In this document: positions 3,311 to 40,274 of the stretch, piece after piece
Layout of the letters: each line of letters begins with the position of its first letter
How positions within the stretch are numbered: position 1 is the first letter of the stretch
Assembly: GCF_041886205.1 (NCBI RefSeq)
Contig: NZ_CP169031.1
DNA length: 64,000 bases
Source of the DNA: Escherichia coli
GTDB taxonomy: Bacteria > Pseudomonadota > Gammaproteobacteria > Enterobacterales > Enterobacteriaceae
Strand: one strand, 5' to 3'
Notes under the pieces: generated by a model
Database searches by the model: none
What the model saw: the letters and a program-made list of their open reading frames with translations, nothing else
What the model was told of the DNA's origin: nothing
Translations under genes and position numbers: made by a program

Positions 3311-3370
3311 ACAACCAGATGAGAAGTTACTTTGCATACCATTACCTCCTGACAACGTAGGAGGGAACTT

Positions 3371-3700: not shown

Positions 3701-4140
3701 TTGGCTGGGGTGTATGCGTTCTTGCGTTAGCCTTAGCCGATCGCTATTTGCTAAAACGCAAGGACATCACGCATTTAGAACTTGGTGATGTGGAAATTAA
3801 ACCGGGTTTCATCCGGGTGCCGTTCAAATACCGGTCTAAATTCCCGTTTTTGCGCGGCGCAACGGTCAGATATTGGATCCGCGATGTTCAGAAGCCAACG
3901 ACAGTGATTGAAGGCGAACAACGTTGTCTGACGTCGGCTGAACAGGGCGAAAACAGTGAATGGTTGTACATACCCACTGAATATATGGGTAAAGGAGAAC
4001 GGCTGTGGCATTTCAACGTCATGGTTACGCATGGCGACTCGTTCATTAACCCGTTGTATCGGATTTTCCCTGTTACTCAGCAAATCCGCAGAAGTTACGT
4101 AATAAATCTCGCACAGGATGTGTCAGATGACGAAAAATAA
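3697..4140 (+). CDS. lydB: Antiholin-like protein (P1 LydB-like)
   Basis: 147 aa, start overlaps lydA stop (translational coupling); position matches P1 lydB. Confidence 0.6.
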   Translation: MIGWGVCVLALALADRYLLKRKDITHLELGDVEIKPGFIRVPFKYRSKFPFLRGATVRYWIRDVQKPTTVIEGEQRCLTSAEQGENSEWLYIPTEYMGKGERLWHFNVMVTHGDSFINPLYRIFPVTQQIRRSYVINLAQDVSDDEK

Positions 4141-4729
4141 GTATGCAACGGTCGATTTTGACCAGGTTAATGAAAAGGGGCTGAAATCCCTTATCGCGGC
4201 GATCAATAAAACCGGTGTTACGGTAATTGAGGTTGACTCCAGCAACCGCGCAACAACGAAAGATGGCGTTAAAGTTAAAACCGCAAAGCTGGTTCTTAAC
4301 GACGGACAAATTCTTGCCATACAGGTAAACGATACTGGCGATATATCGTCTGTGAGGCTGAATGGAAAAGCTATTCCTAACGCTCAGTCGCCGGATATCA
4401 AGACGCTTGGTACCGTCATGGGGCAAGCGGCCCGCAAAAACTCCGCAAAATTCCAGAAATCACTGATCGCCAAAGCGAAACGTGTTGCCAATCCGGTAGA
4501 CAAGAAACCGGCAGTAAAATCCAACTTTCAGCGCCTGCAAGAGGCAAAACAGCGGAATGCTCAGGTGGTTGCCGCTTATAAATCAGCGCAGAACTCGGTG
4601 TCTTTCAATCAACAGCAGATCACTGATTTGCGGGCGAAGCTGGATAAGGAGACAGGCCGACTCAATAACGAAAAGGCCCGAAATGGCGAACTCAAACGCC
4701 GTCTTAAGCAACTGAAAGCAGGAAATTAA
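4127..4729 (+). CDS. hdf: Hdf (homologue of DarA fragment), Dar antirestriction/capsid morphogenesis
   Basis: 200 aa from second ATG (track ORF starts 4118); shares motif KNSAKFQ and basic coiled-coil region with the DarA encoded immediately downstream. Confidence 0.6.
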   Translation: MTKNKYATVDFDQVNEKGLKSLIAAINKTGVTVIEVDSSNRATTKDGVKVKTAKLVLNDGQILAIQVNDTGDISSVRLNGKAIPNAQSPDIKTLGTVMGQAARKNSAKFQKSLIAKAKRVANPVDKKPAVKSNFQRLQEAKQRNAQVVAAYKSAQNSVSFNQQQITDLRAKLDKETGRLNNEKARNGELKRRLKQLKAGN

Positions 4730-4730
4730 C

Positions 4731-6650
4731 ATGGAACAGTTCAATATCAATAAAGGGGTGACGATCAAACCTGGGCTTGACGTGCTTCCCCCGCCAGTGA
4801 CTGATGATGAATATCGCGCATTAATGGCCGGTGAGGACCGCTATCTGATGACGGAATCCAACACCCTGGAGGAAATCGAGGCTACGTTCTTCTATGACAC
4901 GCCGATCCACTGGTGTGCTACGGATTTACTGGAGGCGATTAGTTCTACTCGTTTGCAGCTACACCGGACCATGCAGGCATTTGTCCGGGCATTGAACCAG
5001 AAGCTGAATGGTACCGGAATCTCTGCGGGGAGTGATAAAACGGGGGATGTGGCCCAGAACGGTGCACGCGCGATCGGCGGGGCTGAAATTGGCCGGGCAC
5101 GTAACGTTAACGGGCTGCCGGTCCTGCCAGCCATTATTCCGCTCAGTGATGGTCAGACTATCAGCATTCTGTTTCATAGCCCGACAGCGGAAAACCGGAT
5201 CACCAATAGCGATACGCTGATTGCTTTCCAGTTCTTACTGAATAAAAAAGACGTTACTCATACCGTTGCTCCGATGAGTGGACGTGATATGACGCTGGCG
5301 CAGGTCACCATGAAACTTGCCAACCTTGCAGAGAAAAACTCGGCAAAATTCCAGCGTGCGCAGAAGAAGAAAAAAGCCCTGGTTGATGAAATAACCCAAC
5401 TACAGGCTGACAGTGACCAGAAAGAGGATGCCATGAGCGACCTCGCGGATCAGGTGGCAGCGGTAGAAGGGCAGAAGGTAGATCTGGAGCAGAAAATTAA
5501 CGCTGTTGCATCGGAAGCGGATTCTCTTTATGAAGAGAATGAGCGTTTGCAGACGGAGATTGATCAGCTCAATCGAACTGGTGGGCGCGAAACCATTGCT
5601 CCTGCGGGGATGACTGGTGGACACTCTCGCGCGATGACGGATCGCCTTGCAAGTATCAAAAATCGTATGCATATGAACGGGGAAGTGACGCTCAGTAATG
5701 GTGCATCAATGAAGCAATTCATTGAGGACGGTGAAGGGTATATCCAGTTAACCGATTCGGATGGCAGCGTGTACATGATCAAGGCTAAATCCATACAGGG
5801 TGTGGACATGGCAGATGCGATCGGCAAGCTGTTTAAAGCCTATAAAGCGGGTAATGTATCGGAATACCTGGTCCAACCAGAAGAACATAAACCGGAAAAC
5901 GTCGAACCTGAACCAGCGGAGGATACCGGTAGCTCTTCGCCTGAACCAGAAATCTCTGTAGGTGCATATCGATATGCCCTGCAAATGCGTCCGGCGGCCC
6001 CTGGCGCAATACCTGAAGGTAACAAAGCAATTCTGCCGCGCCCTGATGAAGGTGACCCGTATTATGAATATGCACGCTACGGCATTGCTACTTACGATAC
6101 CCCGCTTTCTGATCAGCAAATGAGTGAGTACGACCTGAAGTTATTGCCTCGCGAGGATTCTTTCGACTTCTTGGCGAAGACACTTACTAATGGTCCGTTT
6201 GGCAAATATGCACAAAAAGCTCTGGAGCTGGCCACCAGCTCACCAGACGAGTTCCGCGTAATGCTGAAAACTCAGTTTCAAAAAACTTTCCCCAATATTG
6301 CGTTTCCGGGGGGCGCTGGCACCGAGAAAATGGTGCAGAGCATGATCAATGCATTGCAGGCCGAAGTCGGTGAGATTACTCAGCCAGAACCTGCCCCGGC
6401 ACAGCCTGATGAAACGGTTAGCGAAGCAGATGCAGAGGCTAATAAAGCCATTGAATATCTCAATAACGTGATGGATATGCAAAGCACTGACATGGCGGAG
6501 ATCCGTAACGCCCGGGGTAATGTCCGGGAAGCGATTGCAGCCCTTCAGGCTGCCGGGCGTTTTGAGGAAAACGAAGAGCTGGTTAATGGCGCTGCTCGCC
6601 ACTTGGCTGATCTGCTGGTAGCAATCCAGAAAGCGGGGGTAGCGGCATGA
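4731..6650 (+). CDS. darA: DarA, internal head protein, defence against restriction
   Basis: 639 aa (same length as I recall for P1 DarA); follows hdf, precedes ddrA/ddrB; Glu/Ala-rich coiled-coil segments. Confidence 0.75.
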   Translation: MEQFNINKGVTIKPGLDVLPPPVTDDEYRALMAGEDRYLMTESNTLEEIEATFFYDTPIHWCATDLLEAISSTRLQLHRTMQAFVRALNQKLNGTGISAGSDKTGDVAQNGARAIGGAEIGRARNVNGLPVLPAIIPLSDGQTISILFHSPTAENRITNSDTLIAFQFLLNKKDVTHTVAPMSGRDMTLAQVTMKLANLAEKNSAKFQRAQKKKKALVDEITQLQADSDQKEDAMSDLADQVAAVEGQKVDLEQKINAVASEADSLYEENERLQTEIDQLNRTGGRETIAPAGMTGGHSRAMTDRLASIKNRMHMNGEVTLSNGASMKQFIEDGEGYIQLTDSDGSVYMIKAKSIQGVDMADAIGKLFKAYKAGNVSEYLVQPEEHKPENVEPEPAEDTGSSSPEPEISVGAYRYALQMRPAAPGAIPEGNKAILPRPDEGDPYYEYARYGIATYDTPLSDQQMSEYDLKLLPREDSFDFLAKTLTNGPFGKYAQKALELATSSPDEFRVMLKTQFQKTFPNIAFPGGAGTEKMVQSMINALQAEVGEITQPEPAPAQPDETVSEADAEANKAIEYLNNVMDMQSTDMAEIRNARGNVREAIAALQAAGRFEENEELVNGAARHLADLLVAIQKAGVAA

Positions 6651-7012
6651 CACTATCAGCTATTGAGTTAATGGATCTCAGCGATAAGTTGGATGCTTTG
6701 ATGTCCAAAGCGGCTACCGCGAGTGGCATGGAGTTGCTGGATATCAGCGATGAAATTGACCAGATCATGCAACAGATGGGGTACGGTGTGTCCGGCGGCA
6801 GTAGTGGCGAGGAAAAACAACCTTCGGTACATGATGGTGTGCCAAAACTGGTTGCTGATTTCCTGGCTGATAAATTCGTCGATCAGAGCACCGATGCATT
6901 TATCGGTACCTTGCAGGATTTGAGTCAATATGTTGGCACATACATCGACCTGGACCAGGTTAAACAGCACACGGCGGCATGGATAGCCGCCAACATTAAA
7001 GAGGCAGCATAA
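6647..7012 (+). CDS. ddrA: DdrA-like protein (downstream of darA)
   Basis: 121 aa acidic protein overlapping darA stop; syntenic with P1 ddrA. Confidence 0.55.
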   Translation: MTLSAIELMDLSDKLDALMSKAATASGMELLDISDEIDQIMQQMGYGVSGGSSGEEKQPSVHDGVPKLVADFLADKFVDQSTDAFIGTLQDLSQYVGTYIDLDQVKQHTAAWIAANIKEAA

Positions 7013-7024
7013 GGCGTAACAGGG

Positions 7025-10012
7025 ATGAGCTTAAGCGATCAGGTGGTAATGGCCACCAGCATAGAAACGCTGATCGAGCTGCTAAAGAACCTGCCCGGTT
7101 ATGGGCGGGTTTCGTATGTGGTGACAGCGAAGGGAGACGAGGTAAAAACAGCGTTTGATATCGTCGATGCCTCAGCTCTTTTGGTATCCAATACTCTGGA
7201 TGGGAAAATTAATCCTGACTATCCCCAGGAACTTCAGCCGCGCGACCGGACCCGCGCATCCAGCCTTCTTCAGGTTAACCAGATATCCAAAGATTTGCGG
7301 CCTGCTCAGCTTACTGATTCCGGTTTATCCAGCCATGGTGCGCCGATAATTGGTGAGGACAATGCCGTTGAGTCAGGTAATGGACGGACCATGGGGATCA
7401 TCAAAGCCTATCAGGACGGCAATGCGGATCGGTATCGTGAGTACCTGATTGATCATGCGACCGAATTCGGCATACGACCTGAAAAGGTTGAATCAATGAC
7501 GGCTCCGGTACTGGTGCGCCGCCGGTTAACCAAGGTTGACCGCGTTCAGTTTGCCAAGGACTCAAATATTTCTGATCTTCAGGAAATGGCAGCCAGTGAA
7601 AAGGCTTTTGTTGATGCCGACAGCATAACACCGGCGATGATGGCGCTTTTTAACCCGTCAGAAAGCGGAGATCTGCTTAGCCGCAGTAATGACGCGTTTA
7701 TTCGCGGATTTATGACGCAAGTTGGTGCCACACAGGCGGCTGGCCTTGTAACTGAAGATGGGCGACCAACACGGCAACTTGTAGACCGTATACAAAACGC
7801 GATCTTTGCCAAGGCATATAAGGATGCGCGCCTGGTAAGGATGGTTGCAGAAGAACCTGATCCGGACATGCGTAATGTTCTGACGGCGCTTAATGCGGCA
7901 GCCAATGATTTTGTCCAGATGCAGGCTTTATCAGGAGAAGCGCACAAGCAGGCTGTGACAACTATTGTTGATGGCATTGAGACAGCGGATAGCCTCGATA
8001 AAAAGGCGCTGGCGGCATTGAAAGATGCGGTAGACCTGGTAAGGCAATCGAAGGAGTCAGGCCAGCATATTACCGATGTTATTGCTCAGGGGGATATGTT
8101 CAGCGAAACGGCCCCGGAAGTGAAAGCACTCGCGTTGTTCATCGTCGCGAATAACCGTAGCGCGAAGCGTATGGCCTCCGCCTTTAAGTTGATGGCTCAA
8201 CGTATCAATGATGAGTTACAGCACCAGGGCCAGGCGCTGGGGGATATGTTTGGCGGTGGTGATGTGTCGTTACAGGATATCCTTCGCCAGGTGTCTCAGG
8301 AACTGGAAAACGAAGGCATGCAAGGGATATCCGGCGGTCTTTTCGAGTCCGTTTCCGGCGGTAGTTACAATGGTGTTGCTCCATATACCAGTTTGCTATT
8401 ACATCGGGCATCCGGCATCAAAGACATTATTCATCTGATCAGGCTGCTTTCCCGTACAGATCCCCAGGATGAACAGCTTGTACAAGTGCTTGCGCATTTT
8501 GTTCGAATGCCTGTTGCCGACGTGAAAAAATGGTGCCGATTATTCGGTATCAGCAATTCGTTACTTCGCGGCTTGTTAAATCACGCATCCTCCCTTGGGC
8601 GCGATGGCTTTGACGAGATAGCGCAGGCGATAAAAAACGGAGATATGCCACCAGCTATTGACTGGTTTTCCATTCGCCCAACCAGGGTGAAAGCATTCCT
8701 TAGCGCGGCGCATTCGGCATCACCATTGGCAGAAATGGTTCAGAGGTTGTCGCTCATATTCACAGACCATACCGCGTTGGGTGATTTGACTCTGGACGAG
8801 ATGAAAGAAGCCTCCATTCAGTGGGCCGATCAACAAAATGAGGTTAACTCTGACTTCTTGCCAGCATTCAGGAAGGCCGTTAGTAAAGCTGATGATGCCC
8901 GTGGAATTCTGAGGGCATTTAAGGCATTGCAAAGTCAGGTTAATAAACATGTCGGTGATATCGATGGGGTAACGGCGGAAGGCAGGGATATCCTTAAAGA
9001 GCACGGCATAACGCCAGAGTTTATTGATGAGATCAGGACTGATATGCAGCGTGAGGTCGTATCGTCCCTGCAAATCGTAGCCAGAGCGTTGGCGGATGCT
9101 AATCCGAAGAGTGCGGCCATTGTTAACCGTGTTATTGGTGATATTGAAGCATCGGAGGGCATGGGGGCGCTGAAACTCTTCCTTTCGCGAGCGTTTAATC
9201 CTAACGGCAATATTCTCCCCGGCATTATTGGTGAGGCTAAAAAGTATGTCAGCGAAGAAGAACTTGAGCATCTTGACCAACTACTTAAGCGATTCTCATA
9301 TAACCCGCAGACACGCTGGCAAATGAATCAGCAAAGTATGGGTTCGGTCCACGAGAAAGTGTTATCTGCCATGAACAGTGCGATCGCCAACTCATCCGTA
9401 TCTGAAGAAAAAGCTCTTGAGTGGGCCGACTCTTTTATCACGGAAGAAGTGGAAGAAGCCCGCGCTGGACAGAATGGTGGGATAGACCTGCGCAAGGAAC
9501 TTGCTGATATTTATCGCCTGACCGGCGGTAAAATTTCGACCTTATCAAAGGTGGTTCACCACCAGGGAAGGGCATATGCAAATATTAATGGTGTTGTTGC
9601 TGTCAATTTGAACGATGAAAATGCAAGTGCACTGTGGCACGAGCTGGGTCATCATCTTGAGTACAGTAACCCTGGTTTGTTAGAGAAAGCCCGGTCATTC
9701 CTGAAGGCCAATGTTGAAGGGGATAAGCCATCTTTCGTTAATATCGGTGGGCGTGGCAAGCCTGAATGGTGCTTCAGATCTCGATTGAGTAATATTTATA
9801 TGGCGAAGGTATACCCGCCAGCCTCAGTAAGTAACACCGGGAAAATTCGGCAGAAATCACCGACTATTTCCAAAACGTCAGCAACGGAAGTATTCTCTAT
9901 GGCTCTTCAGTTGTATCATGACAAAGAGGCCGCTGCCGCATCACTGATGAATGGTGACGGATTGCTGGAACTGTTATTAGGTGTGGCAAAGGAGCTAAAT
10001 AATGCAGATTAA
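7025..10012 (+). CDS. ddrB: DdrB-like large virion protein (Dar system)
   Basis: 995-aa ORF after ddrA; length and position match P1 ddrB as recalled. Confidence 0.65.
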   Translation: MSLSDQVVMATSIETLIELLKNLPGYGRVSYVVTAKGDEVKTAFDIVDASALLVSNTLDGKINPDYPQELQPRDRTRASSLLQVNQISKDLRPAQLTDSGLSSHGAPIIGEDNAVESGNGRTMGIIKAYQDGNADRYREYLIDHATEFGIRPEKVESMTAPVLVRRRLTKVDRVQFAKDSNISDLQEMAASEKAFVDADSITPAMMALFNPSESGDLLSRSNDAFIRGFMTQVGATQAAGLVTEDGRPTRQLVDRIQNAIFAKAYKDARLVRMVAEEPDPDMRNVLTALNAAANDFVQMQALSGEAHKQAVTTIVDGIETADSLDKKALAALKDAVDLVRQSKESGQHITDVIAQGDMFSETAPEVKALALFIVANNRSAKRMASAFKLMAQRINDELQHQGQALGDMFGGGDVSLQDILRQVSQELENEGMQGISGGLFESVSGGSYNGVAPYTSLLLHRASGIKDIIHLIRLLSRTDPQDEQLVQVLAHFVRMPVADVKKWCRLFGISNSLLRGLLNHASSLGRDGFDEIAQAIKNGDMPPAIDWFSIRPTRVKAFLSAAHSASPLAEMVQRLSLIFTDHTALGDLTLDEMKEASIQWADQQNEVNSDFLPAFRKAVSKADDARGILRAFKALQSQVNKHVGDIDGVTAEGRDILKEHGITPEFIDEIRTDMQREVVSSLQIVARALADANPKSAAIVNRVIGDIEASEGMGALKLFLSRAFNPNGNILPGIIGEAKKYVSEEELEHLDQLLKRFSYNPQTRWQMNQQSMGSVHEKVLSAMNSAIANSSVSEEKALEWADSFITEEVEEARAGQNGGIDLRKELADIYRLTGGKISTLSKVVHHQGRAYANINGVVAVNLNDENASALWHELGHHLEYSNPGLLEKARSFLKANVEGDKPSFVNIGGRGKPEWCFRSRLSNIYMAKVYPPASVSNTGKIRQKSPTISKTSATEVFSMALQLYHDKEAAAASLMNGDGLLELLLGVAKELNNAD

Positions 10013-10313
10013 AATCGCAGCGCCATTAGGCGGAGATGCCATTATCGAATTTGATGATAATGAAGAAGTTTCCGGGCGTTTAAGCATTATCTCCGGTGAC
10101 ATTACCGAGGACATGATCGCTGAAGCCATAGCTGGGGCAAATCCCAATAGCTATATGGGATTCGTTAACACCCTTGATGCTCCCGCAAGTGATGTTCTCC
10201 GAACGCTGCATCTTTACGCTGGCTGGTTTGTTGATTGGCCAGCAGTAGATGGTGGCGATGAGGACGACGACGACGATGATTTTGGTGATCATGTAGACCA
10301 GATCGTATATTGA
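10002..10313 (+). CDS. Hypothetical acidic protein
   Basis: 103 aa, overlaps ddrB stop, C-terminal Asp/Glu run (GGDEDDDDDDFGD); followed by intrinsic terminator. Confidence 0.5.
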   Translation: MQIKIAAPLGGDAIIEFDDNEEVSGRLSIISGDITEDMIAEAIAGANPNSYMGFVNTLDAPASDVLRTLHLYAGWFVDWPAVDGGDEDDDDDDFGDHVDQIVY

Positions 10314-10317
10314 AGAA

Positions 10318-10345
10318 ATCCCGCCAATCGGCGGGATTTTTTTTA
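10318..10345 (+). terminator. Rho-independent terminator (end of dar operon)
   Basis: ATCCCGCC-AATC-GGCGGGAT stem-loop followed by T8. Confidence 0.75.
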
Positions 10346-11125
10346 ATCGCTTTCCACTTCTTCCGTGGTGTTTTCTTGCAGTTCTGTTAATGCAGCACGA
10401 CATAGGTTCCGGGCATTGGCTATAGCCACACTTTTGACTTCATCCGTCATCGTGCAGGTAATGTACTGATCGAGTTCTTCAGCGCGGATGATGCTTTTGC
10501 CAATCAGAAACTGTATTTGCCAGAGCAGATCGGCATCCATAATCAGAATTTCTGCCGGGCCTTCAGGGCCAGCCGGGAAGGAAACATAAGACTGTTTGCC
10601 CAGGCCGACAACTCGACAACTTGCTTCAAGAATTGCGCGCTTGAGGTCTGACTTTATAACGGAAACAGGTTGATTTTCACCAGTGATTACGCCGTTGACA
10701 TGGAAAGGCATGTAGCTTGAAATACGCTCCACTTTCCACACGCCAGCAAGCGATCCTTCATGCAGCACAATGGGGGTAACCGCGAGTTTCATCTCACCAT
10801 ATAACTGCTGGCAGATAGCTGGATTGCTGAATACATCTAAAGGCTCACATTCAAACAGCGGCGCAATCTGCATGAGGTCCATCATGGTCATCCCTGGGGT
10901 ACGAGCAGTAATGAATTTGCGCATACCAGTATCCATTGCGCTCCAGATTGCTACACCATGCTTTTTGCTCACTTCTTCAGTAAAGCCAAGGTGGCACATG
11001 ATGGTTTTTTCGATAGCCAGATCAGAGATAGAAACCTTTTCGCCAGGTACTCCATCATTATTGATGGTCACTTCGACACTCTGGCCATTACGCAGGCGGT
11101 ATTGAATTGCTTTAGTATTTTCCAC
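10343..11125 (-). CDS. Hypothetical protein (last gene of ssb operon)
   Basis: 260-aa ORF, 7 nt downstream of the DUF2829 gene, same strand; no recognised motif. Confidence 0.6.
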   Translation of the reverse strand: MENTKAIQYRLRNGQSVEVTINNDGVPGEKVSISDLAIEKTIMCHLGFTEEVSKKHGVAIWSAMDTGMRKFITARTPGMTMMDLMQIAPLFECEPLDVFSNPAICQQLYGEMKLAVTPIVLHEGSLAGVWKVERISSYMPFHVNGVITGENQPVSVIKSDLKRAILEASCRVVGLGKQSYVSFPAGPEGPAEILIMDADLLWQIQFLIGKSIIRAEELDQYITCTMTDEVKSVAIANARNLCRAALTELQENTTEEVESD

Positions 11126-11131
11126 GTTAAA

Positions 11132-11809
11132 TCACTCCACTACAAACCAGTCACATGCCAGTAAGTCGCCTACAGAAGGAACCCACGGAACAACTACACC
11201 TTGTGCATTTTTTAAGGCGAAATAAGCACCATACGGAACGAGGTCGCCGGGGAAATATCCCTTAATGGCTTCCATTCGTGCCGGGTACTGTCCTTCAGGA
11301 ACCAGCCAGCAGAATTGGTTTTCGCCGTTCCACCCGCGTCGAGCAACTTTCTTGCCATCCTTCAGCCACATCAGCGCGTCAGAAAAGTCGGCTGCTTCAA
11401 GGTCGATTTCTTCTTGTAGAGTAGCGATACCGCCAGCAGAAATAGTTACGTCCCTGGCTGTAATGAATGTCACCCCATTGTGACCTTCAATGCTGAGCGA
11501 TACCCCATTTTCGAAGAAGTCGTTAGTCCGACTAAAGCCTTCTTCAAATGTTTTTTCTGGTGAATAGGACAGAGATCCGTCCTCATAAGCGACCAGATAT
11601 CCGCCAATTTCTGGTCGGTGTTTTTGCAAAAATATTTTATCAACATGGACTTTTACCCCTTCTGGCTCAACGACTTCGATGTTGCAAAAAAGGACCACAT
11701 CCATTAGGGCGATAATTTCGATATCTTTGATTTTTGAGGCGCGAACTGTTTTATGGCTTTTGTATTTTGGAAGTGCCGTCAAAAGCTCTTTCGTTGTCAT
11801 GTTATTCAT
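11132..11809 (-). CDS. DUF2829 (Tad2-like) domain fusion protein
   Basis: 225 aa from ATG at 11809 (RBS GAGGAAAG; track ORF extends to 11977). C-terminal ~85 aa (ALMWLKDGKKVARRGWNGENQFCWLV...VVPWVPSVGDLLACDWFVVE) matches my recollection of the DUF2829 signature; N-terminal 140 aa unknown. Confidence 0.6.
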   Translation of the reverse strand: MNNMTTKELLTALPKYKSHKTVRASKIKDIEIIALMDVVLFCNIEVVEPEGVKVHVDKIFLQKHRPEIGGYLVAYEDGSLSYSPEKTFEEGFSRTNDFFENGVSLSIEGHNGVTFITARDVTISAGGIATLQEEIDLEAADFSDALMWLKDGKKVARRGWNGENQFCWLVPEGQYPARMEAIKGYFPGDLVPYGAYFALKNAQGVVVPWVPSVGDLLACDWFVVE

Positions 11810-12006
11810 AGTCTTTCCTCTGCTTAAAACCTGATGTATTGCGCCTTCAGGTGGGTCAGGAATGTTTTCCCACCAGCGAACGCAATATCTCGGGGTGTTC
11901 TTTTCGTGAAAAGCGTGTGCCATTGCCAACTTTGGCGTTTGTTTGCGAGTTCGTGCTTTTGTCGGCGTCTGGACCACCGCTTTTCTTTCAGTCGTTTTTT
12001 ACACAT

Positions 12007-12495
12007 TCAAAACGGAATATCGTCGTCAAAGTCCATTGGAGGTTCGTTATTGGCGTTGCTCTGAGGTTTACCGCCACCACTGTATTGCTGGTGGTTTTGA
12101 GGTTGGTTTGATTGCCCCCAGCCATTTGAGGACTGTGAATCGTCACGGCGAGCGCCGATCATTTGCATGGTGCCGCCCTGGCTGACGATAATTTCCGTCG
12201 TGTAACGTTCTACACCGGCGTCATCAGTCCACTTACGGGTTTTAAGTTTCCCTTCGATGTAGACCTGAGAACCTTTTCGTAAATACTCACTCGCAATTTC
12301 AGCAAGTTTTCCGAACAAAACGACTTTATGCCATTCTGTTTGCTCTTTCTGTTGGCCCGTTTGCTTATCGCGCCATGATTCATTCGTTGCGATGCTGAGT
12401 CTTCCGACTGCGCCGCCATTTGGTATATACCTGATCTCCGGGTCTTGCCCCAGGGTACCAATCAGGATGACTTTGTTTACACCGCGTTGTGCCAC
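12007..12495 (-). CDS. ssb: Single-stranded DNA-binding protein
   Basis: 162 aa, GTG start; OB-fold N-terminus ([18 protein letters not shown]), Gly/Gln-rich linker, acidic tail DFDDDIPF. Confidence 0.95.
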
Positions 12496-12514
12496 TTTTC
12501 TTACCTAATAAAAT

Positions 12515-12531
12515 AAATTAATTAGAGCAAT
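12515..12531 (-). promoter_or_regulatory. C1 repressor operator-like site upstream of ssb
   Basis: AAATTAATTAGAGCAAT, 16/17 match to reverse complement of P1 operator consensus ATTGCTCTAATAAATTT. Confidence 0.6.
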
Positions 12532-12664
12532 AATGTATATCTTTGAAACGTGGCTAACAAGTGATTTGCATTATCCTGTGCCTTCTAAAGGGATCGAGTC
12601 AGTCGGTATTGGCTGTGAATGAGTGTTTGTCCTGGAGCGTAAAAAATTCGCTTATGAGGTCTTT

Positions 12665-13222
12665 ATGAAGGGAAAAACAGCCGCAGGAGGCGGTGCAATT
12701 TGCGCTATCGCGGTGATGATTACCATCGTGATGGGTAATGGCAATGTGCGAACCAACCAGGCGGGGCTTGAGCTGATTGGTAACGCTGAAGGTTGCCGAC
12801 GTGATCCATACATGTGCCCGGCGGGGGTATGGACTGACGGGATCGGTAATACACACGGGGTAACGCCGGGTGTGCGAAAAACCGACCAGCAAATCGCCGC
12901 TGATTGGGAAAAGAATATCCTGATCGCTGAACGCTGTATTAATCAGCACTTCCGGGGCAAAGACATGCCCGATAATGCCTTCAGTGCAATGACAAGCGCG
13001 GCATTCAATATGGGATGCAATAGCTTACGGACCTACTACAGCAAAGCGCGAGGCATGCGAGTAGAAACGTCCATCCACAAGTGGGCGCAGAAAGGGGAAT
13101 GGGTGAATATGTGTAACCATCTCCCTGATTTCGTGAACAGTAACGGCGTGCCCCTGCGAGGTTTAAAGATTCGCCGTGAAAAAGAACGCCAGCTTTGCCT
13201 GACGGGGCTTGTCAATGAATAA
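12665..13222 (+). CDS. lyz: SAR endolysin (T4-lysozyme family, P1 Lyz-like)
   Basis: 185 aa from ATG 12665; N-terminal signal-anchor-release segment MKGKTAAGGGAICAIAVMITIVMG followed by lysozyme catalytic region (GLELIGNAEGCRRDPY...GIGNT). Confidence 0.9.
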   Translation: MKGKTAAGGGAICAIAVMITIVMGNGNVRTNQAGLELIGNAEGCRRDPYMCPAGVWTDGIGNTHGVTPGVRKTDQQIAADWEKNILIAERCINQHFRGKDMPDNAFSAMTSAAFNMGCNSLRTYYSKARGMRVETSIHKWAQKGEWVNMCNHLPDFVNSNGVPLRGLKIRREKERQLCLTGLVNE

Positions 13223-13469
13223 ACTCCGGCAGCTCCGCCGACTTTCGACAATGAAGTTATCGCTGGCGGCGATAGTTTTTGACTCGATTTTCATGGCGGT
13301 ATATGTGCTCAATGAGACGTGGCCACTGGAACCGCTATTGTATGCCGGGCTTCGGCTGTGCCTGACATTTTTGAGCATGGCTGCGAGATTGATGCAGCAG
13401 AAAGAAACCGCTTCAGATTGTCCACGCCGCGCGGTGCGCAAATATATGGCACGAAGGCGAAGGCGATAA
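13209..13469 (+). CDS. Putative lysis accessory protein (P1 LydD-like position)
   Basis: 86 aa, overlaps lyz stop, one hydrophobic segment, basic C-terminus; followed by terminator. Confidence 0.4.
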   Translation: MSMNKLRQLRRLSTMKLSLAAIVFDSIFMAVYVLNETWPLEPLLYAGLRLCLTFLSMAARLMQQKETASDCPRRAVRKYMARRRRR

Positions 13470-13483
13470 TAGTTAACGAGAAC

Positions 13484-13508
13484 CCCGGCAGCTGCCGGGG
13501 TTATTTTT
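13484..13508 (+). terminator. Rho-independent terminator
   Basis: CCCCGGCAGCTGCCGGGG palindrome followed by TTATTTTT. Confidence 0.65.
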
Positions 13509-13513
13509 GGTGG

Positions 13514-16244
<2,731 letters not shown>

Positions 16245-16310
16245 TTAATTAGAATAATTCGCATCGTGTTTGAACGGAATTTAACACTAGTCACTTGTTA
16301 AGGATTACCA

Positions 16311-19300
16311 ATGAACAAGCTATCTATGGGGGTGTTTCGCTGTTCAAGTGTCAGCGAAATATTAAAATACATTAGGGCAATAACATCTCACCGAGCGCCG
16401 ATTAAATACGGCGTGGAAAAGGTGGAAGGCAAAAGCTATGACCGACTGCGCCGGGAGGCGAATCAGAAGGCGATAGATTTGCTTAATTCGCTGGTGGACG
16501 GCGCGACACTGACAGATGAACAGCGCCAGATCCTGGCTGGGTACACCGGTGAAGGCGGCATTGGCGGGTCCGTCTCCGAATATTACACACCAAAGCCGAT
16601 CGCTGAAGGTGTCTGGGAGATCATGAAGCTCTACGGCGCGGACGTAGGTAACACTCTGGAACCATCGGCGGGAACCGGCGTTTTTAATGAGACAAAGCCG
16701 GTTGGTACGGTGATGACCGCGACTGAGATCAGCAGTGTTTCCGGTCGTATAAACCAGTTGTTACACCCGGAAGACAGCGTACAGATTTCCCCGTTCGAAC
16801 AGCTGGCTGTAAGCACGCCTAACGATTCATTCGACCATGTTGTGGGTAACGTTCCGTTCGGCGGTCGTGATAACACACGCAACATCGATAAGCCTTACGC
16901 AGAAGAAACGGACATGGGTTCTTACTTCATGCTCCGCATGCTGGACAAGATAAAGCCTGGCGGATTCATGTGTGTGATTGTGCCGCCGTCCATTGTTTCA
17001 GGTTCAAACATGAAGCGGTTACGCCTGCGCCTATCACGGAAAGCTGAATTTCTTGGCGCTCACCGCTTGCCTACCGGTACTTTTGACGCAAACGGGACCA
17101 GTACAGTCGTTGATGTGGTGCTGATGCGCAAACATCCGGCAGAGATGGCTGAGAAAATCCCCCTGGTGGATGAAGGCACTCTTGAATCGGCAAATGTGCT
17201 TTGGCCAACGTTTATTTCTGGCAAGTGGTTTGAAAAGGATGGCCGCCGGTTTGTTCATGGCACCCAGGAAAAGGGCTTCCAGGGGCGTATTGAGGTTCGT
17301 GCCGACGGTCAGATTGATAACCAGGCTCTTAAAGCGAAGCTGATTCATCGTTTCGAAAGCCGTATCGACTGGTCTTTGCTCGATATGGCTGAACCGTCAC
17401 CGACCGCAGACGTTGTTGGTGAAGGGGAAATGCGCCTGATTAATGGTGTATGGCAAAAATATGCTGGTGGTCGCTGGATTGAAGCTGATGCCGGGAAGGA
17501 ACTTAAGATCGATGCTGCCAGTTATGGCGCGGATAGCTGGGAGGCTCTTCAGCGTAACCTGACTACAACAGAAGGCCGTCTCGGCATGACATTTACCCAG
17601 ATGGCAAATGTCCGCGATAAGTACACCACATCAATCAGCGACGATATGGTGCAGCTGGTGGACTGGATTAACAGCCAGCCTGAAAAATACCGTGAACGCT
17701 TGTATCGCGGGGCGATGATTGGCCGGATGTTAATTGAATATCAGGACATGAAGGCCGCCGGGCATAGTGCTGAACAAATCGAACAGCAGCGCCTTTCTCT
17801 GGTATCCCGTTTGCAGGCAGAGATTGACCGTTTTGGTAACCCCGGTCGCGGTCCGATAGCGAAATTGTCGGGGAGCGGTGCGCGCGCCTGGTTTGCTTTC
17901 CGTGGTGCGATTAAGCTGGATGGCACTATTTCTGACGAGCTGACAGGAAAGCTGGTTACGCATGATTCCAGCGCCAGTTATGACTACACCAGCTATCAGG
18001 ACACCCTGCGTTATCTCTATAGCGATCTCACCCGCGATCCAATCCAGCTCGATGATTTCCGCCTTGCGTTTACCGGCGAACTGCCAGCCAGTGATGAAGA
18101 GTTGCTTAATTTATTGGCCAGCACCCCTGGTATTGCGGTTTCACCGTATGGCGGGATTGTTCCGTTCGCCCGCGCCACCAGCGGCGACATTAACGAGATA
18201 GTGGCTCCAAAACAGGAATTCCTCGCCACACTCCCCGACGGTCCAGTAAAGAACAACGTCCTTAATCAGCTGGCAGCTATCGAAGAGAAGCGCATCAAGA
18301 CGCCAGCAGAGAATATCCGGTTTAAGCTCAATAGCCGTTGGTTCGACCGTTCCGTCATTCTGGAATTTTTGCAGGAAAACGGCTATCCGGATCTGCGCTA
18401 TGTGCAGTCAGTGCAGCTGGAAGGCGACGAAATGGTTTCTGACACCTATCACGGTGGTGATGGTCTGTTCGTCGGGCACCGATACGGTGTCGTCCAGCGC
18501 AAGGATAAAGAAACAGGTGAGATTCGCTACGAGTGGGACCGTAAATCAGGTGAAAACGCGACCGGGTTCCCGGCACAGCTGGAAAAGTATCTCAATGGTG
18601 CGCGTATCGGTGGCAAAGATAGCGCGACGGCGAACGGCTACCGCGAGCAGATGGCACTGCTTGAGGACCAGTTCAATAAGTGGATCAAGACGCACGATCG
18701 CTACGATGAGCTGGTTGCCAAATACAACGATGTGTTCAATAGCAATATCCCGTATGAACACTCTGGCGATCCGCTTGGGTTGAAGGGATTAAGCGGTAAG
18801 CGCCAGCCATTTGATTACCAGAATAGCGAGGTGCGCCGACTGTCCGAAGATGGGCGCGGCATCCTGGGCTTCGGCACCGGGCTGGGTAAAACCACGACCG
18901 CGCTGGCGCTTGAGGCGTTCAACTATGAGAACGGTCGCTCCACCCGTACTGCGTATGTAGTGCCTAAATCAGTGCTGGAAAACTGGTATTACGAAGCAAA
19001 AGAATTCCTGAGTGAAGAGGCATTCAGTAACTACCTGTTCGTCGGTCTTGATGTGCTGATGGATGGCGATCAGATTCGCCAGGTGCAGGTGCTCGATGAG
19101 AACGGTAAACCTGTTCTTGGTACTGATGGCACTCCAGTTATGCGCGATGCTCTTAAGCTGGCAGATGAAGCCACTATCACGGCGCGGATGAACGCGATCC
19201 CGCACTCAAATTACCGTGCAGTCGTGTTTACCAAAGAACAATACGCCCGCATTCCGCTACGTGATGACACCGTAGATGAGCATGCACAGGATATGCTTTA

Positions 19301-22300
19301 TGACTTCGTTGCCGCCGGACGCGTAGCCAGCGCAATGGACTCCGACTCCCACCGCAAAGAGGCCGCGCGTCGCCGGGTATTGTCGGAGTATTCAGATACC
19401 GGCACCGAAAAAGCAGAGAAGTATCCGTACTTTGAGGATATGGGCTTCGATAGTGTGATCGCTGACGAAGGTCACAACTACCGCAATAGCTATAAAAATG
19501 GTCGCGAAGCGTCACAACTGGCCTATCTGCCCACCAGCGCGGTGGCGCAATCGGCGCGAGATATGGCAATTAAAAACGCGTACCTGATGAAAAAGAATGG
19601 TGGGCGCGGGCCGGTTCTCCTGACTGCAACGCCAGTCGTTAACACCCCGATCGATGCATACAACATGCTTTCTCATGTTCTGCCGAAGGAATACTGGCAG
19701 AACATGGGGATCTACGGTCCTGATGACTTCGTTAAATTCTTCGGCAAGACCAGGCTGGAAACGGTACAGAAAATTAGCGGTGAAGTTGAAGAAAAAATGG
19801 CGCTGGTGGGCTTTGAAAACCTTGATGCGCTGCGCGGTATATTCCATCGCTGGGTAACGCTTAAAACGGCGGAAGACGTTAAGGATACCGTGGAGATCCC
19901 GGAGCTGGACGAACACCAGCAGGATGCACCACTTACTGAAGAACAACTGGCGGCGTATGAAGAATTGCGTCAGCAGGCGGAAGCGGCGGCCAAAGCCAAC
20001 AATGGCGTAACGACCTCGGTCAATGAAGACGGCGTGATTGAGCACGAGAAAGCCCGTCCGATCTTCTCAATAATCAGGGATATGGACCGCGTATGTACTG
20101 ACATGGACCTGTACTATCGCCGGATCACCTATCGTTTCCTGCCGGAGTACGCCGATGCGGTGCAGCAGCTGGCGGACAGTTTGCCTAAACAAGCCACCAG
20201 CGAAGACGACGACAGTGATGATTCAATCACGCAGCAATCGCAATACTCCCTGATAGATAAGGGCGAGTTTATTCAGTTGCAGGTTCCGGAAGCGTTCGAG
20301 CAGGAAGTGAATAAGCGCCTGGCCAGGTTTGGCATTGACGAACAGACCGTAACTCACCCCGTTACGCCCAAATACGCGAAGCTGATTGCCACGCTGAAGG
20401 AGTTTTTCCCGGAAGGTAAGCAAATCATCTTCACCGATGAAAAAACGCAGCACCAGAAGCTCAAGCGCATTATCTGCAATGCTCTTAACCTTGAACCTTC
20501 AAAGGTGGGGATACTGAATGCTCAGACGGTTGCCGAGGCAGGTAAAACCGGTAAGAAACTGAAAGCGGTTAAACCGCCGAAAGAGTTACCGGATGAACCA
20601 ACAGATGCACAGATAGCGAAATACAACGAGCAAATGGCTCTGTATGACGCCTATATCGCGCAGCAAAATGAAATGTCGTTGGGCGGTCTGGAAAAGATTG
20701 CAGCCGACTTCCAGGAGGGCCGGACTCCGATCATCATCTGCAACAAAAAGGCAGAGGTGGGTATCAACCTGCATCGAGGAACGACTGACATCCATCATCT
20801 GACGTTGCCATGGACTCCAGCCAGTATTGCGCAACGAAACGGTCGCGGTGCCCGAGTTGGCTCCAACCGTGCAAGCGTTCGCGTTCACTACTACTGCGGC
20901 AAGGGTTCTTTCGATGAATACCGACTGAAGACGCTGAAGCGTAAAGCAGGCTGGATCTCCGATATCCTCCGTTCAGATAAGTCAGAAATGGAGAACGCCG
21001 ACGCCAACGATATGATCGAAATGCAGATGTATGCCGCTAAGGATGATGGCGAACGTCTGGCAATGATGCAGGTTCAAATGGATAAGGCGAAAGCCGCGCA
21101 ACGCGCTCGCCAGAAAGAACAGGCTACTATCGACCTTCAGAACTACATCAAGGCGCAGCACGCAGCTGGTGAGGATGTGGAGGTGCTTACCGCTGAATTA
21201 GAGCGAAGCAAAGCGGAACTTGAAAAGACCACCGCCGAGGTAGCTAAATTCAAACAGGCGGCAATGGCCAAGGCAGCGGATAACGCAGACTGGAAGGCAC
21301 GCTGGGGGAGTGTCCATCACACAGACCGTATGTTGTTAGCACAGTATCGCGCGTCGTTGAAAAGCGCCATTCAGCGCAAGGCTAATATCTCTCAAGCCAT
21401 CTCCCGCTATGAGAAATTATTGAACCGTACTCAGAAGGCCGCGACGGATATCAAACGCCTGCGCCCGCTGGTGGAGGATGCATTAAATAAAGGCATTCTG
21501 GATGTTGATCCTGACCTGGTTAACCATGCGAGTGAGTTCCTTGTTATCGGCGATCGCTCATGGCGTGTAGGCCAATACTACGATTGTGCCGGTGATATCG
21601 TTCGCATTAAGTCGCTGGACTTCGACAGCCAGCGCGCAGACGTGGAGATCATCTTCACCTTCAAAGGCACCAAATCTGGTAACTGGGATGTGAAGACGCT
21701 GGATAAACAGGTTGATGTAACTCCCGATGAAGATGCTGTTATGCAGAAAATCAGTGGTGGCGTCTCCATCGCCGGGATTAACGACATCGTTTCCTGTGAC
21801 GATTTCTACCGTTTCCAGCAGCGCGGCATGATCAAAATCACTGACTCATACGGCGTTCAGACTACAGAGTCAGGCTATAGCATTGATTTTGTTGGTACCT
21901 ATACGGACCCACTGAAGCATGCGGTTTACCCGGATCGCCGTGACGGCGCGCTGAAGTCGTCAATTGCAAAATGGGTGCTTGGTATGATGTCGGAAGGGAA
22001 TAACCGCCAGATCCGTTCGGCAGAAGCATTCCTGGTTGAACTGTTTGGCTCCAATTATGGCGATGTAATCGCGTCATACGGAGATACGCTATCCCCTGAA
22101 GCAATTCAGGAGAAAATAGCGGATGCGATCGCCAGAATGCCGGAGAAAACAAGCCAGGGGGCTACTCGTAACGGGGATTCTGAACTTGAAGTCACCAATG
22201 CCATTTTCGGTACCAATGAGTTCCGGGCGTCAGATTATGAGATCACCACAGCACAGTTTGGCACCATTGGCATTTACAGCAATAAAGACGAGATCAAGCA

Positions 22301-23078
22301 GGCAATGGACGCAGCAAGCGCGCGCATTGCAGCAGAACGGAAAGTCAATCTGAATCATGCAGTCGCCGCGCTGACTCAATCGTGGGTAACAGCAATCAGG
22401 GAGGCCGCCACCACAGGGAAAATCACACCGGCAATTGCGGATGTCGTAAACGACGGCTCTAAATTTATGGATGCCTATCAAATGGATGCGGTGCAGTTGC
22501 CATCAGCCTATGGGCAACTCAGCTATCGCATGACCTACAACCTGGTATCAATGTTTACCGACCTTGCCATCCTTGGGCTGGTGGACCTTAACGAGGTTAC
22601 GCCGGAATTGCTCAGCATGCGCAAGAATCATGTGGAGATATTGCACAGAATTAACACGGTACTTGCCGGGCGCACCGATGAAGAGAAACAGGCAGACGCT
22701 GATCGGATAAACCTGGCCCTTGGCAACATCACGGAGGAAGAAATTGCCGCCAGAAACGAGAAACAAGAAGAGTTATCATCAATACAGGGTGATGCCACCA
22801 GCATAGCTCAGTCTCTTGGTCTGAATTATCGCGTATCCACCGCCGACCTGAAGATGATGTACGCACCAAAATTCGCCGCTGGCGAGGTATTTGGGCTTCA
22901 GGAAGCCTCCGGCATGAAAGGGGTTCTTTTCCGTGCGAAAGACGCAATCAAGGCGAAATTCGGCGCTCGCTGGTTGCCAGCGAAGGCGAAGAACAGCGAC
23001 TTCCCAGGTAACTGGTGGATTATCGAGACAAAACACAACGTGGCGGACGTTCTGGCCGTCATCCAACAATACGCATAA
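16311..23078 (+). CDS. darB: DarB antirestriction protein (N6-adenine methyltransferase + SF2 helicase domains)
   Basis: 2255 aa; N-terminus has MTase motif I (LEPSAGTGVF) and motif IV (VVGNVPFGG); central DEAH-like helicase motif (VIADEGHNYRN). Length equals P1 DarB as recalled. Confidence 0.9.
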   Translation: MNKLSMGVFRCSSVSEILKYIRAITSHRAPIKYGVEKVEGKSYDRLRREANQKAIDLLNSLVDGATLTDEQRQILAGYTGEGGIGGSVSEYYTPKPIAEGVWEIMKLYGADVGNTLEPSAGTGVFNETKPVGTVMTATEISSVSGRINQLLHPEDSVQISPFEQLAVSTPNDSFDHVVGNVPFGGRDNTRNIDKPYAEETDMGSYFMLRMLDKIKPGGFMCVIVPPSIVSGSNMKRLRLRLSRKAEFLGAHRLPTGTFDANGTSTVVDVVLMRKHPAEMAEKIPLVDEGTLESANVLWPTFISGKWFEKDGRRFVHGTQEKGFQGRIEVRADGQIDNQALKAKLIHRFESRIDWSLLDMAEPSPTADVVGEGEMRLINGVWQKYAGGRWIEADAGKELKIDAASYGADSWEALQRNLTTTEGRLGMTFTQMANVRDKYTTSISDDMVQLVDWINSQPEKYRERLYRGAMIGRMLIEYQDMKAAGHSAEQIEQQRLSLVSRLQAEIDRFGNPGRGPIAKLSGSGARAWFAFRGAIKLDGTISDELTGKLVTHDSSASYDYTSYQDTLRYLYSDLTRDPIQLDDFRLAFTGELPASDEELLNLLASTPGIAVSPYGGIVPFARATSGDINEIVAPKQEFLATLPDGPVKNNVLNQLAAIEEKRIKTPAENIRFKLNSRWFDRSVILEFLQENGYPDLRYVQSVQLEGDEMVSDTYHGGDGLFVGHRYGVVQRKDKETGEIRYEWDRKSGENATGFPAQLEKYLNGARIGGKDSATANGYREQMALLEDQFNKWIKTHDRYDELVAKYNDVFNSNIPYEHSGDPLGLKGLSGKRQPFDYQNSEVRRLSEDGRGILGFGTGLGKTTTALALEAFNYENGRSTRTAYVVPKSVLENWYYEAKEFLSEEAFSNYLFVGLDVLMDGDQIRQVQVLDENGKPVLGTDGTPVMRDALKLADEATITARMNAIPHSNYRAVVFTKEQYARIPLRDDTVDEHAQDMLYDFVAAGRVASAMDSDSHRKEAARRRVLSEYSDTGTEKAEKYPYFEDMGFDSVIADEGHNYRNSYKNGREASQLAYLPTSAVAQSARDMAIKNAYLMKKNGGRGPVLLTATPVVNTPIDAYNMLSHVLPKEYWQNMGIYGPDDFVKFFGKTRLETVQKISGEVEEKMALVGFENLDALRGIFHRWVTLKTAEDVKDTVEIPELDEHQQDAPLTEEQLAAYEELRQQAEAAAKANNGVTTSVNEDGVIEHEKARPIFSIIRDMDRVCTDMDLYYRRITYRFLPEYADAVQQLADSLPKQATSEDDDSDDSITQQSQYSLIDKGEFIQLQVPEAFEQEVNKRLARFGIDEQTVTHPVTPKYAKLIATLKEFFPEGKQIIFTDEKTQHQKLKRIICNALNLEPSKVGILNAQTVAEAGKTGKKLKAVKPPKELPDEPTDAQIAKYNEQMALYDAYIAQQNEMSLGGLEKIAADFQEGRTPIIICNKKAEVGINLHRGTTDIHHLTLPWTPASIAQRNGRGARVGSNRASVRVHYYCGKGSFDEYRLKTLKRKAGWISDILRSDKSEMENADANDMIEMQMYAAKDDGERLAMMQVQMDKAKAAQRARQKEQATIDLQNYIKAQHAAGEDVEVLTAELERSKAELEKTTAEVAKFKQAAMAKAADNADWKARWGSVHHTDRMLLAQYRASLKSAIQRKANISQAISRYEKLLNRTQKAATDIKRLRPLVEDALNKGILDVDPDLVNHASEFLVIGDRSWRVGQYYDCAGDIVRIKSLDFDSQRADVEIIFTFKGTKSGNWDVKTLDKQVDVTPDEDAVMQKISGGVSIAGINDIVSCDDFYRFQQRGMIKITDSYGVQTTESGYSIDFVGTYTDPLKHAVYPDRRDGALKSSIAKWVLGMMSEGNNRQIRSAEAFLVELFGSNYGDVIASYGDTLSPEAIQEKIADAIARMPEKTSQGATRNGDSELEVTNAIFGTNEFRASDYEITTAQFGTIGIYSNKDEIKQAMDAASARIAAERKVNLNHAVAALTQSWVTAIREAATTGKITPAIADVVNDGSKFMDAYQMDAVQLPSAYGQLSYRMTYNLVSMFTDLAILGLVDLNEVTPELLSMRKNHVEILHRINTVLAGRTDEEKQADADRINLALGNITEEEIAARNEKQEELSSIQGDATSIAQSLGLNYRVSTADLKMMYAPKFAAGEVFGLQEASGMKGVLFRAKDAIKAKFGARWLPAKAKNSDFPGNWWIIETKHNVADVLAVIQQYA

Positions 23079-23111
23079 CAGGAGCGCCCGGTTCGCCGGG
23101 CGTCGCATAAT

Positions 23112-23552
23112 ATGGCCACACTATCTGATACAATAAAACCGAATAAAACATATCTTGAGGCGGTACTCCGTACAGCGTTGTTAGGAAAGACAGAAGACGA
23201 ATACGTTGATTTCTTCCTGTCAGGGCTACGCGGGCGATTACTGAAAAATCCCCGCCTGTACCGCAGCTATGGTCCATACTGGCCGGAAATTAAAAAATTA
23301 TTACTGGAGCGCGGTTATGGTAATTTCGGTCGTCTCGTTGACCGTGACGTTCGCAAAATTTACCGTTATGACCGCCCGGCGCTAACACTCATAGCCGCGA
23401 CGCTCTATAGCCAGGAGCGTTTTGATAATGGTCAGATATACTCAGCCTGGCATTTACTGCCAGTGCCTGAAGAAGTTGACGACCAGGACTATGAGTTTGA
23501 GTCTTACGATTTGGAAGTTGAAGCCTTGGCACAGGCTGGAGAGAAAACTTGA
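23112..23552 (+). CDS. ulx: Ulx-like protein
   Basis: 146-aa ORF between darB and lxc; named by synteny with P1 only. Confidence 0.45.
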   Translation: MATLSDTIKPNKTYLEAVLRTALLGKTEDEYVDFFLSGLRGRLLKNPRLYRSYGPYWPEIKKLLLERGYGNFGRLVDRDVRKIYRYDRPALTLIAATLYSQERFDNGQIYSAWHLLPVPEEVDDQDYEFESYDLEVEALAQAGEKT

Positions 23553-23797: not shown

Positions 23798-23806
23798 GTT
23801 TTGTTG

Positions 23807-23831
23807 GCCCGGTTTGCACCGGGCGTTTCAC
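23807..23831 (+). terminator. Hairpin terminator after lxc
   Basis: GCCCGGT-TTGC-ACCGGGC stem-loop followed by GTTTCAC. Confidence 0.5.
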
Positions 23832-23879
23832 AAACAATCAACTGGTTTGTAGTTCCTGCGGCGAGATGAATTATTAATA

Positions 23880-40153: not shown

Positions 40154-40274
40154 TTGACCATTGCTACCGACCGGGCCACCTTAACACCCGGTCTGTATAT
40201 AGACTATTTTTTACGCGCCGGAAGTCACTCTTAACGCCCTTCCGGCCCTTGCCAGGCGGCACAAAGGATGCGCT

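Follow-up and report, generated by a model that had tools for sequence, protein, structure and literature searches.

A complete P1-type Dar antirestriction gene set and a separate type IC restriction-modification system in a P1-like phage-plasmid sequence from Escherichia coli

Does a P1-like element carry a complete and intact Dar antirestriction system, and how would such a system stand beside a restriction-modification (R-M) system of the element's own? The question is raised by positions 4127-23552 of a 64,000-nucleotide (nt) stretch of contig NZ_CP169031.1 (Escherichia coli, RefSeq assembly GCF_041886205.1); the window, as used here, is this whole stretch. Knowledge of the Dar system of phage P1 goes back to 1987, the definition of its six components to 2017, and cryo-electron microscopy (cryo-EM) of DarA-Hdf followed in 2026. 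An initial annotation of the window had claimed the full P1-type set (hdf-darA-ddrA-ddrB and ulx-darB) alongside a type I R-M system, in an element that both evades host restriction and imposes restriction on competitors. Judged from its gene content, the element very probably carries an ordinary, intact Dar system of a P1-like phage-plasmid, plus a type IC system that would be expressed in the lysogen.

Translations of the open reading frames (ORFs) of the window were compared with the annotated P1 proteins by BLASTP, and the identities given below are protein-level identities unless DNA is specified. The genes and promoters of the Dar system are the following, with protein lengths in amino acids (aa).

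3324..3342, plus strand: LPdar, Lpa-dependent late promoter driving lydA-lydB-hdf-darA-ddrA-ddrB-hxr; its 19 nt, AAGTTACTTTGCATACCAT, equal the annotated P1 LPdar exactly
3371-3700, plus strand: lydA, holin, gene 1 of the dar late operon, 100% identical to P1 LydA
3697-4140, plus strand: lydB, antiholin, in the dar late operon, 98.6% identical to P1 LydB
4118-4729, plus strand: hdf, the DarA partner on the inner capsid surface, 203 aa, 98.5% identical to P1 Hdf
4731-6650, plus strand: darA, internal head protein, 639 aa, 97.5% identical to P1 DarA
6647-7012, plus strand: ddrA, acidic 13-kDa protein with an isoelectric point (pI) of 4.1, 121 aa, 95.9% identical to P1 DdrA, PHROG 1855 'DdrA-like anti-restriction'
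7025-10012, plus strand: ddrB, 995 aa, 98.4% identical to P1 DdrB, with an N-terminal Pfam ddrB-ParB match (E 2e-39)
16225..16255, plus strand: PdarB, predicted sigma-70 promoter, unchanged from the annotated P1 PdarB
16311-23078, plus strand: darB, 2255 aa, 98.7% identical to P1 DarB without gaps
23112-23552, plus strand: ulx, 146 aa, 98.6% identical to P1 Ulx, PHROG 1629 'Ulx-like anti-restriction'

These genes form two transcription units, LPdar-lydA-lydB-hdf-darA-ddrA-ddrB-hxr and darB-ulx, the second followed by lxc. The dar late operon is densely packed, neighbouring genes overlapping or lying apart by no more than 12 nt, and across both dar units the value is at most 33 nt. All six Dar proteins have the lengths of their P1 counterparts, at 95.9-98.7% identity, with no gaps, frameshifts or truncations, and their genes stand in the P1 order, which bears out the claim of a full P1-type set. 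BLASTP against the P1 Dar proteins had been proposed as the check on that claim, and rather than low identity it returned 96-99% for all six. The ratio of nonsynonymous to synonymous substitution rates (dN/dS, Nei-Gojobori) against P1 is 0.09-0.19 across the six dar genes; the portal gene prt, at 0.11, falls in the same range, and these values therefore argue for purifying selection on all six.

Domain and structure matches agree with the gene assignments. Hdf has a Pfam DarA_N match (E 1.5e-21) and aligns over its full length to chain H of PDB 9UKM, the capsid-bound protein in the P1 cryo-EM structure, while DarA carries DarA_N and DarA_C and matches chain I of the same structure, likewise capsid-bound, over its full length. 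In the C-terminal part of DdrB the HExxH metallopeptidase motif is kept (HELGH at residue 872); this motif is the basis of a predicted autoprocessing metallopeptidase in DdrB (PMC5512222). The start of hdf is at 4118 in the P1 annotation and 9 nt downstream, at 4127 (200 aa), in the deposited annotation of a near-identical plasmid. The interval named in the initial annotation runs from this alternative start to 23552, the stop of ulx, and in that sense spans the Dar genes; it is however composite, with non-Dar genes inside (hxr, an isaA-like gene, a Tad2-domain gene, ssb, lyz, lydD, pro and prt, all between the dar units).

The 2255-aa DarB with methyltransferase and helicase motifs is also as initially described. 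On inspection, methyltransferase motif I (EPSAGTGVF) and a motif IV-like NVPF are intact, as are helicase motif I (GTGLGKTT, residues 855-862) and motif II (DEGH, residues 1052-1055), and the Pfam matches are N6_Mtase, Eco57I, SNF2-related, ResIII and Helicase_C. DarB differs from its P1 homolog by 30 substitutions, none of them within the methyltransferase or helicase motifs and none in the N-terminal 30 residues. Residues 1-30 of P1 DarB have been defined experimentally as a capsid-targeting signal (PMC9024508), and these 30 residues are identical between the window and P1. P1 Ulx is required for entry of DarB into the capsid. The darB gene of the window contains ten Chi sequences (six on the plus strand and four on the minus strand), and P1 darB reportedly contains 11.

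The surroundings of the dar genes are those of a P1-like element. A megablast search of 4127-23552 against phage genomes matched 25 records, 17 of which have a single place covering at least 80% of the query. P1 (NC_005856) aligns at 98.0% DNA identity with 96% of the query covered, and the Salmonella phage SJ46, the E. coli phage RCS47 and Ro157c2YLVW at 98.5-98.7% DNA identity with 100% coverage, similarities far beyond what chance could give. Of the records in the plasmid collection, 237 span 80% or more of window positions 1-25000, with a top identity of 99.4%, and one record that was checked is typed IncY. The plasmids pF16EC0267-1 (CP088422) and NZ_CP148287 show 99.1-99.4% identity across 87% of positions 1-25000. 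Because of these phage and plasmid matches, the window is assigned to a P1-like (Punavirus, IncY-type) phage-plasmid of Enterobacteriaceae. Two blocks are collinear with P1, from LPdar to hxr (3314-10311) and from ssb to lxc (11806-23795). Between them, in comparison with P1, the window has no IS1 (insertion sequence, IS) and no isaB; present are an IsaA-like gene (10343-11125, minus strand) and an extra 684 bp (11122-11805). An Rfam scan of the window returned three transfer RNAs (tRNAs) and no other RNA family.

As to the second half of the question, the element encodes R-M genes of its own, listed here.

37386-38948, plus strand: hsdM, full-length match to EcoR124 HsdM (1117 bits)
38945-40153, plus strand: hsdS, framework regions near-identical to EcoR124II HsdS
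40275-43391, plus strand: hsdR, match to EcoR124 HsdR (PDB 2W00) over all 1038 residues (2278 bits), with Pfam EcoR124_C

All three ORFs are intact, and the matches identify hsdMSR at 37386-43391 as a type IC (EcoR124-family) R-M system. HsdS has the N-terminal, central and C-terminal conserved regions, and both of its target-recognition domains diverge from those of EcoR124II HsdS, so that the DNA specificity should differ from EcoR124. The initial annotation had set a type I R-M system beside the Dar genes at 4127-23552; a complete hsdMSR is indeed present in the element, though 14 kb outside that interval. The same annotation regarded the combination as known biology for P1, which is right for the Dar part and only loosely so for the R-M part, since the R-M system of P1 itself is the type III EcoP1I, which is absent here.

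The hsd cassette (36911-43466) occupies the place of pmgT, pmgU and pmgV of P1 (P1 84483-85928). Its right junction falls exactly at P1 84482, a position for which the P1 record lists identity with sequences lying downstream of R124/3 hsdR and the EcoDXXI hsd locus, and for the phd-doc segment the same record notes a match to DNA upstream of the EcoDXXI locus. As the P1 record annotates both junction matches, a connection of type IC hsd loci with P1 DNA had already been recorded; Tyndall et al. reportedly described such a link in 1997. Genes for hsd at this site also occur in the isolated phage vB_EcoM-673R5 and in many E. coli plasmids.

For EcoP1I, the order in P1 is lxc, then mod and res, then mat. 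In the window, 889 bp separate the end of lxc (23797) from the start of mat homology (24687), and they carry no res/mod and only one gene, for a GNAT acetyltransferase. P1 3469-9749 (res/mod, 6.3 kb including IS5) is precisely replaced by these 889 bp, 23798-24686.

23880-24488, minus strand: GNAT acetyltransferase gene, 202 aa, in the place of res/mod

Other P1-like elements have a RelA/SpoT-family gene or res/mod at this site, which makes it a cargo hotspot.

How the Dar system would work is best followed from P1, and it calls for the late activator and the head genes of the element, which are listed with the late promoter LPpro.

13514-14533, minus strand: pro, head-processing protease, with the P1-equivalent start, 99.7% identical to P1 Pro
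14526-16235, minus strand: prt, portal, 98.9% identical to P1 Prt
16278-16296: LPpro, unchanged from the P1 annotation
32511..32963, minus strand: lpa, activator of late promoters needed for LPdar, Pfam BPP1_LPA (E 3e-57), collinear with the lpa region of P1

The head genes pro and prt sit between the two dar units, and the promoter LPlyz is also unchanged from the P1 annotation. Late in lytic growth Lpa would switch on LPdar, as in P1, and Hdf and DarA would bind the inner face of the procapsid. In the P1 cryo-EM structure 55 DarA-Hdf pairs lie at the penton-hexon junctions of the inner capsid, in contact with DNA (PMC12810830). The six Dar proteins would be added stepwise, with DarB last, directed by its N-terminal 30 residues; P1 DarB enters the head last, in about 40 copies (PMC9024508). 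On infection the Dar proteins would be released from the head along with the DNA and shield it in cis from type I restriction. The DarB/Ulx/DdrB branch would be tied to EcoB and EcoK and the DarA/Hdf/DdrA branch to EcoA, by analogy with P1. In P1 the action of Dar is confined to DNA of the same capsid, and protection against BREX has also been reported (PMC12707154).

In the lysogen, the type IC hsdMSR of the element should restrict unmodified incoming DNA. Since Dar would act only in cis on packaged DNA, it could coexist with the resident type IC system without conflict. Judging by homology, the element would, as the initial annotation put it, both evade restriction by its hosts and restrict its competitors. 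In a weaker reading, the R-M classes carried by P1-like elements (type III or type IC) might escape Dar and so let these elements exclude each other.

No sequence feature of the window contradicts an intact Dar system; four points nevertheless weigh against reading it as an ordinary working one. Dar function and virion formation are predictions from the genes of this element. The pmgT, pmgU and pmgV genes, called 'putative morphogenetic' in P1, are replaced by the hsd cassette, yet phage vB_EcoM-673R5 has the same layout, and the presence of hsd genes at this site in an isolated phage suggests that the three genes are dispensable. In the literature examined, no statement was found on the action of Dar against type IC enzymes. 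Finally, alleviation of EcoKI restriction by plasmid-borne darB was traced to Chi and EcoKI sites in the DNA and not to the protein (PMC11109961), and some phenotypes credited to DarB therefore call for care.

Among other explanations, the one that survives best concerns the part played by Hdf and DarA, which may serve primarily in capsid assembly, size control and stability, with antirestriction as a secondary effect. The 55 DarA-Hdf pairs on the inner capsid fit this view, as does the observation that loss of either protein removes all other Dar proteins (PMC12810830), and the P1 virion proteome table labels Hdf and DarA 'head size determinant' (PMC9024508). On the other hand, P1 mutants in darA remain viable but suffer restriction in hosts with type I R-M (Iida 1987, cited by PMC12810830 and PMC12707154), and structural and antirestriction roles are not mutually exclusive. 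A structural role is real, and it complements antirestriction rather than replacing it; that it should be the primary one is possible, if on balance unlikely, and would be compatible with an intact Dar system.

A second alternative bears on the hsd cassette, which could be chiefly an addiction module stabilizing the plasmid rather than an excluder of competing phages and plasmids. The cassette lies in an accessory region beside the phd-doc addiction module and humD, and the element is a low-copy plasmid prophage, as this alternative would have it. However, with phd/doc an addiction module is already present in the element, and the divergence of the HsdS recognition domains agrees with diversifying selection towards new specificities, which one would expect of defence. 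Type I systems, EcoR124I among them, have restriction-alleviation (RA) control and are not known for strong post-segregational killing. Behaviour of the RA type is mentioned for EcoR124I (PMC11109961). An addiction role of the cassette is possible but less likely than defence, and that addiction should be its chief function seems improbable.

It is very improbable that the plasmid-prophage is defective and makes no virions, with the dar genes a relic in it, idle because Dar needs packaging: such a state would agree with the IS66-family element just upstream (~209-2907), the replacement of pmgT-U-V by hsd and the fact that only 64 kb of the element are visible, but every dar gene is free of truncation and frameshift, dN/dS of 0.09-0.19 points to continuing purifying selection, LPdar is not split from the dar operon because the IS66-family element is upstream of it, lpa, pacA, pacB, pro, prt, lyz and c1 are all intact in the window, and the layouts are common to the isolated phages SJ46, RCS47 and 673R5.

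With the intact Dar system as the preferred reading, the only open thread of the Dar set is hxr, the last cistron of the late operon, which we present as a lead and not as a finding.

10002..10313, plus strand: hxr, 103 aa, 97% identical to P1 Hxr; overlapping the end of ddrB by 11 nt

Hxr is strongly acidic, with a pI of 4.05, 24 acidic against 3 basic (Lys+Arg) residues, a net charge of about -21 and the tail GGDEDDDDDD. A Pfam search of Hxr gave no helix-turn-helix domain, and the label 'Xre-like repressor' in the P1 record is not supported by the sequence. Relatives are rare, numbering only 19 among the 1.84 billion representative proteins searched. In distant homologs (31-42% identical) the 11-nt overlap with the preceding gene is found in all four readable contigs, and where the flank sufficed, the distant hxr follows a ddrB-ParB gene and closes a holin-LydB-Hdf-DarA-DdrA-DdrB array (hxr lies at positions 8001-8300 in contig L007 and 8001-8300 in L010). 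In L009 (8001-8555), which holds a closer relative (60% identical), Hxr is tandemly duplicated directly behind ddrB. Since position and overlap persist in distant relatives, hxr is a seventh cistron that the dar late operon has conserved.

The dar operon region gains cargo in distant relatives, with a HicB-like antitoxin gene between ddrA and ddrB in L010 (3985-4425), and a porin gene stands right after hxr in L009 (9015-10127).

One could imagine the Dar operon to have an overlooked seventh member, with Hxr packaged as an acidic partner, or acting against restriction in the manner of a DNA mimic, an idea we put forward as speculative and rather unlikely. The available portion of the P1 virion proteome table, which is ordered by ORF number, passes from Pro (12) to DdrB (22) without an entry for Hxr (PMC9024508). 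With three Lys+Arg residues, Hxr should yield a single tryptic peptide of ordinary size, which could be why it is missing from that portion of the table.

The genes between the two dar units include the following two on the minus strand.

11132-11809, minus strand: Tad2-domain (DUF2829) gene, 225 aa, absent from P1, downstream of ssb
10343-11125, minus strand: IsaA-like gene, 260 aa

The Tad2-domain gene accounts almost exactly for the extra 684 bp. It starts with an ATG at 11809 preceded by a strong ribosome-binding site, GAGGAAAG, and its product agrees at 100% identity with a database cluster under the name 'DUF2829 domain-containing protein' and is called alike in a near-identical plasmid. 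The C-terminal 89 residues form the Tad2 domain (Pfam Tad2-like, E 2.4e-22, profile positions 2-73 of 73); phmmer aligned the protein to ModTad2 (PDB 9EIB) with E 9e-20 and to Tad2 (PDB 8V3E) with about E 1e-19. For an AlphaFold model of the protein, the best Foldseek match is ModTad2 with His-ADPR (9EIB), at probability 1.00 and 46% identity. Sequence and predicted fold together place the protein in the Tad2/DUF2829 family (Tad2, Thoeris anti-defence 2). At the N-terminus the model shows a further, beta-rich domain at good confidence (residues 5-97), and a linker is disordered; the sole Foldseek match of the N-terminal domain is a weak one, to the phage L decoration protein (E 5e-4). The closest relative, ModTad2, is a sponge for His-ADPR, and its clade was shown to sequester the type II Thoeris signal (bioRxiv 10.1101/2024.01.03.573942). 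Tad2 in P1-like elements is already known, a 2025 survey having reported it for 56% of the P1-like and 93% of the D6-like phage-plasmids (10.1101/2025.09.12.675607). As the gene lies downstream of ssb, it may be transcribed from the C1-controlled ssb promoters. A scan of 9900-12700 for promoters and terminators gave no result exceeding the expectation from shuffled sequence.

The IsaA-like gene starts 6 nt past the stop of the Tad2 gene, with GGAG just upstream. P1 IsaA, annotated with 320 aa (contig L001, 12897-13859), aligns to the 260-aa gene together with an upstream leader ORF; the start annotated in P1 is probably placed too far upstream. IsaA-like proteins form a narrow family, for which the search gave 20 matches, mostly from P1-like elements. 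A 281-aa ORF at 11132-11977 was considered as a fusion of an IsaA N-terminus to Tad2, from which P1 IsaA would be a deletion fusion; it was rejected because of the 225-aa gene calls in the database and the strong ribosome-binding site with the ATG at 11809. PADLOC and NCBIfam gave no match for the GNAT, IsaA-like and Tad2 genes. The DUF2829 gene is common to pF16EC0267-1 and NZ_CP148287, and the GNAT gene is also in pF16EC0267-1.

Upstream of the dar operon, an IS66-family element (~209-2907) lies between cin and the lysis genes.

262-939: tnpA of the IS66-family element
939-1286: tnpB
1306-2877: transposase

It is bordered by a TTTTACT(C) direct repeat; its ends are approximate and come from manual comparison, and a generic inverted-repeat search did not find them. 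The lydC position (3026-3310, plus strand) holds a different holin allele of 94 aa, 30% identical to P1 LydC and assigned to PHROG 1527 (holin), next to lydA. Toward the other end of the window, a 754-aa protein (59756-62020, minus strand, noted together with 57217-59082, minus strand) has C5-cytosine and Dam-like N6-adenine methyltransferase domains. This putative equivalent of P1 Dmt adds DNA modification of another kind to the element. Near it are three tRNA genes (Met-CAT, Thr and Asn).

The Dar set described here is already known, textbook P1 biology and not a discovery; a 2025 survey preprint reports Dar-Ddr in every P1/D6 phage-plasmid (10.1101/2025.09.12.675607). The value of the analysis is one of annotation context, a complete antirestriction gene set in an element whose backbone is conserved and whose variable cargo is found at defined replacement sites around it. 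That cargo consists of the IS66-family element, the different lydC allele, the Tad2-domain gene, the GNAT gene in place of res/mod and the type IC hsd genes in place of pmgTUV.

Compared with the Dar system of P1, the window has the same gene set, order, lengths and promoters, with 2-30 amino-acid substitutions per protein. With respect to SJ46, RCS47, vB_EcoM-Ro157c2YLVW and IncY plasmids, it is the accessory cargo that varies, namely IS insertions, the cargo of the res/mod site and the presence of hsd. HsdR and HsdM match EcoR124I/II (PDB 2W00, 7BST) over their full length at near self-score, whereas both HsdS recognition domains differ. EcoP1I of P1 has a likewise prophage-borne R-M role, but it is a type III system and the window system is type IC at a different site. 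With IPI* of T4, Ocr of T7 and ArdA, Dar has a common purpose, the protection of incoming DNA, and no sequence relationship; Ocr and ArdA mimic DNA and inhibit the enzyme in trans, whereas Dar acts only in cis (PMC12707154).

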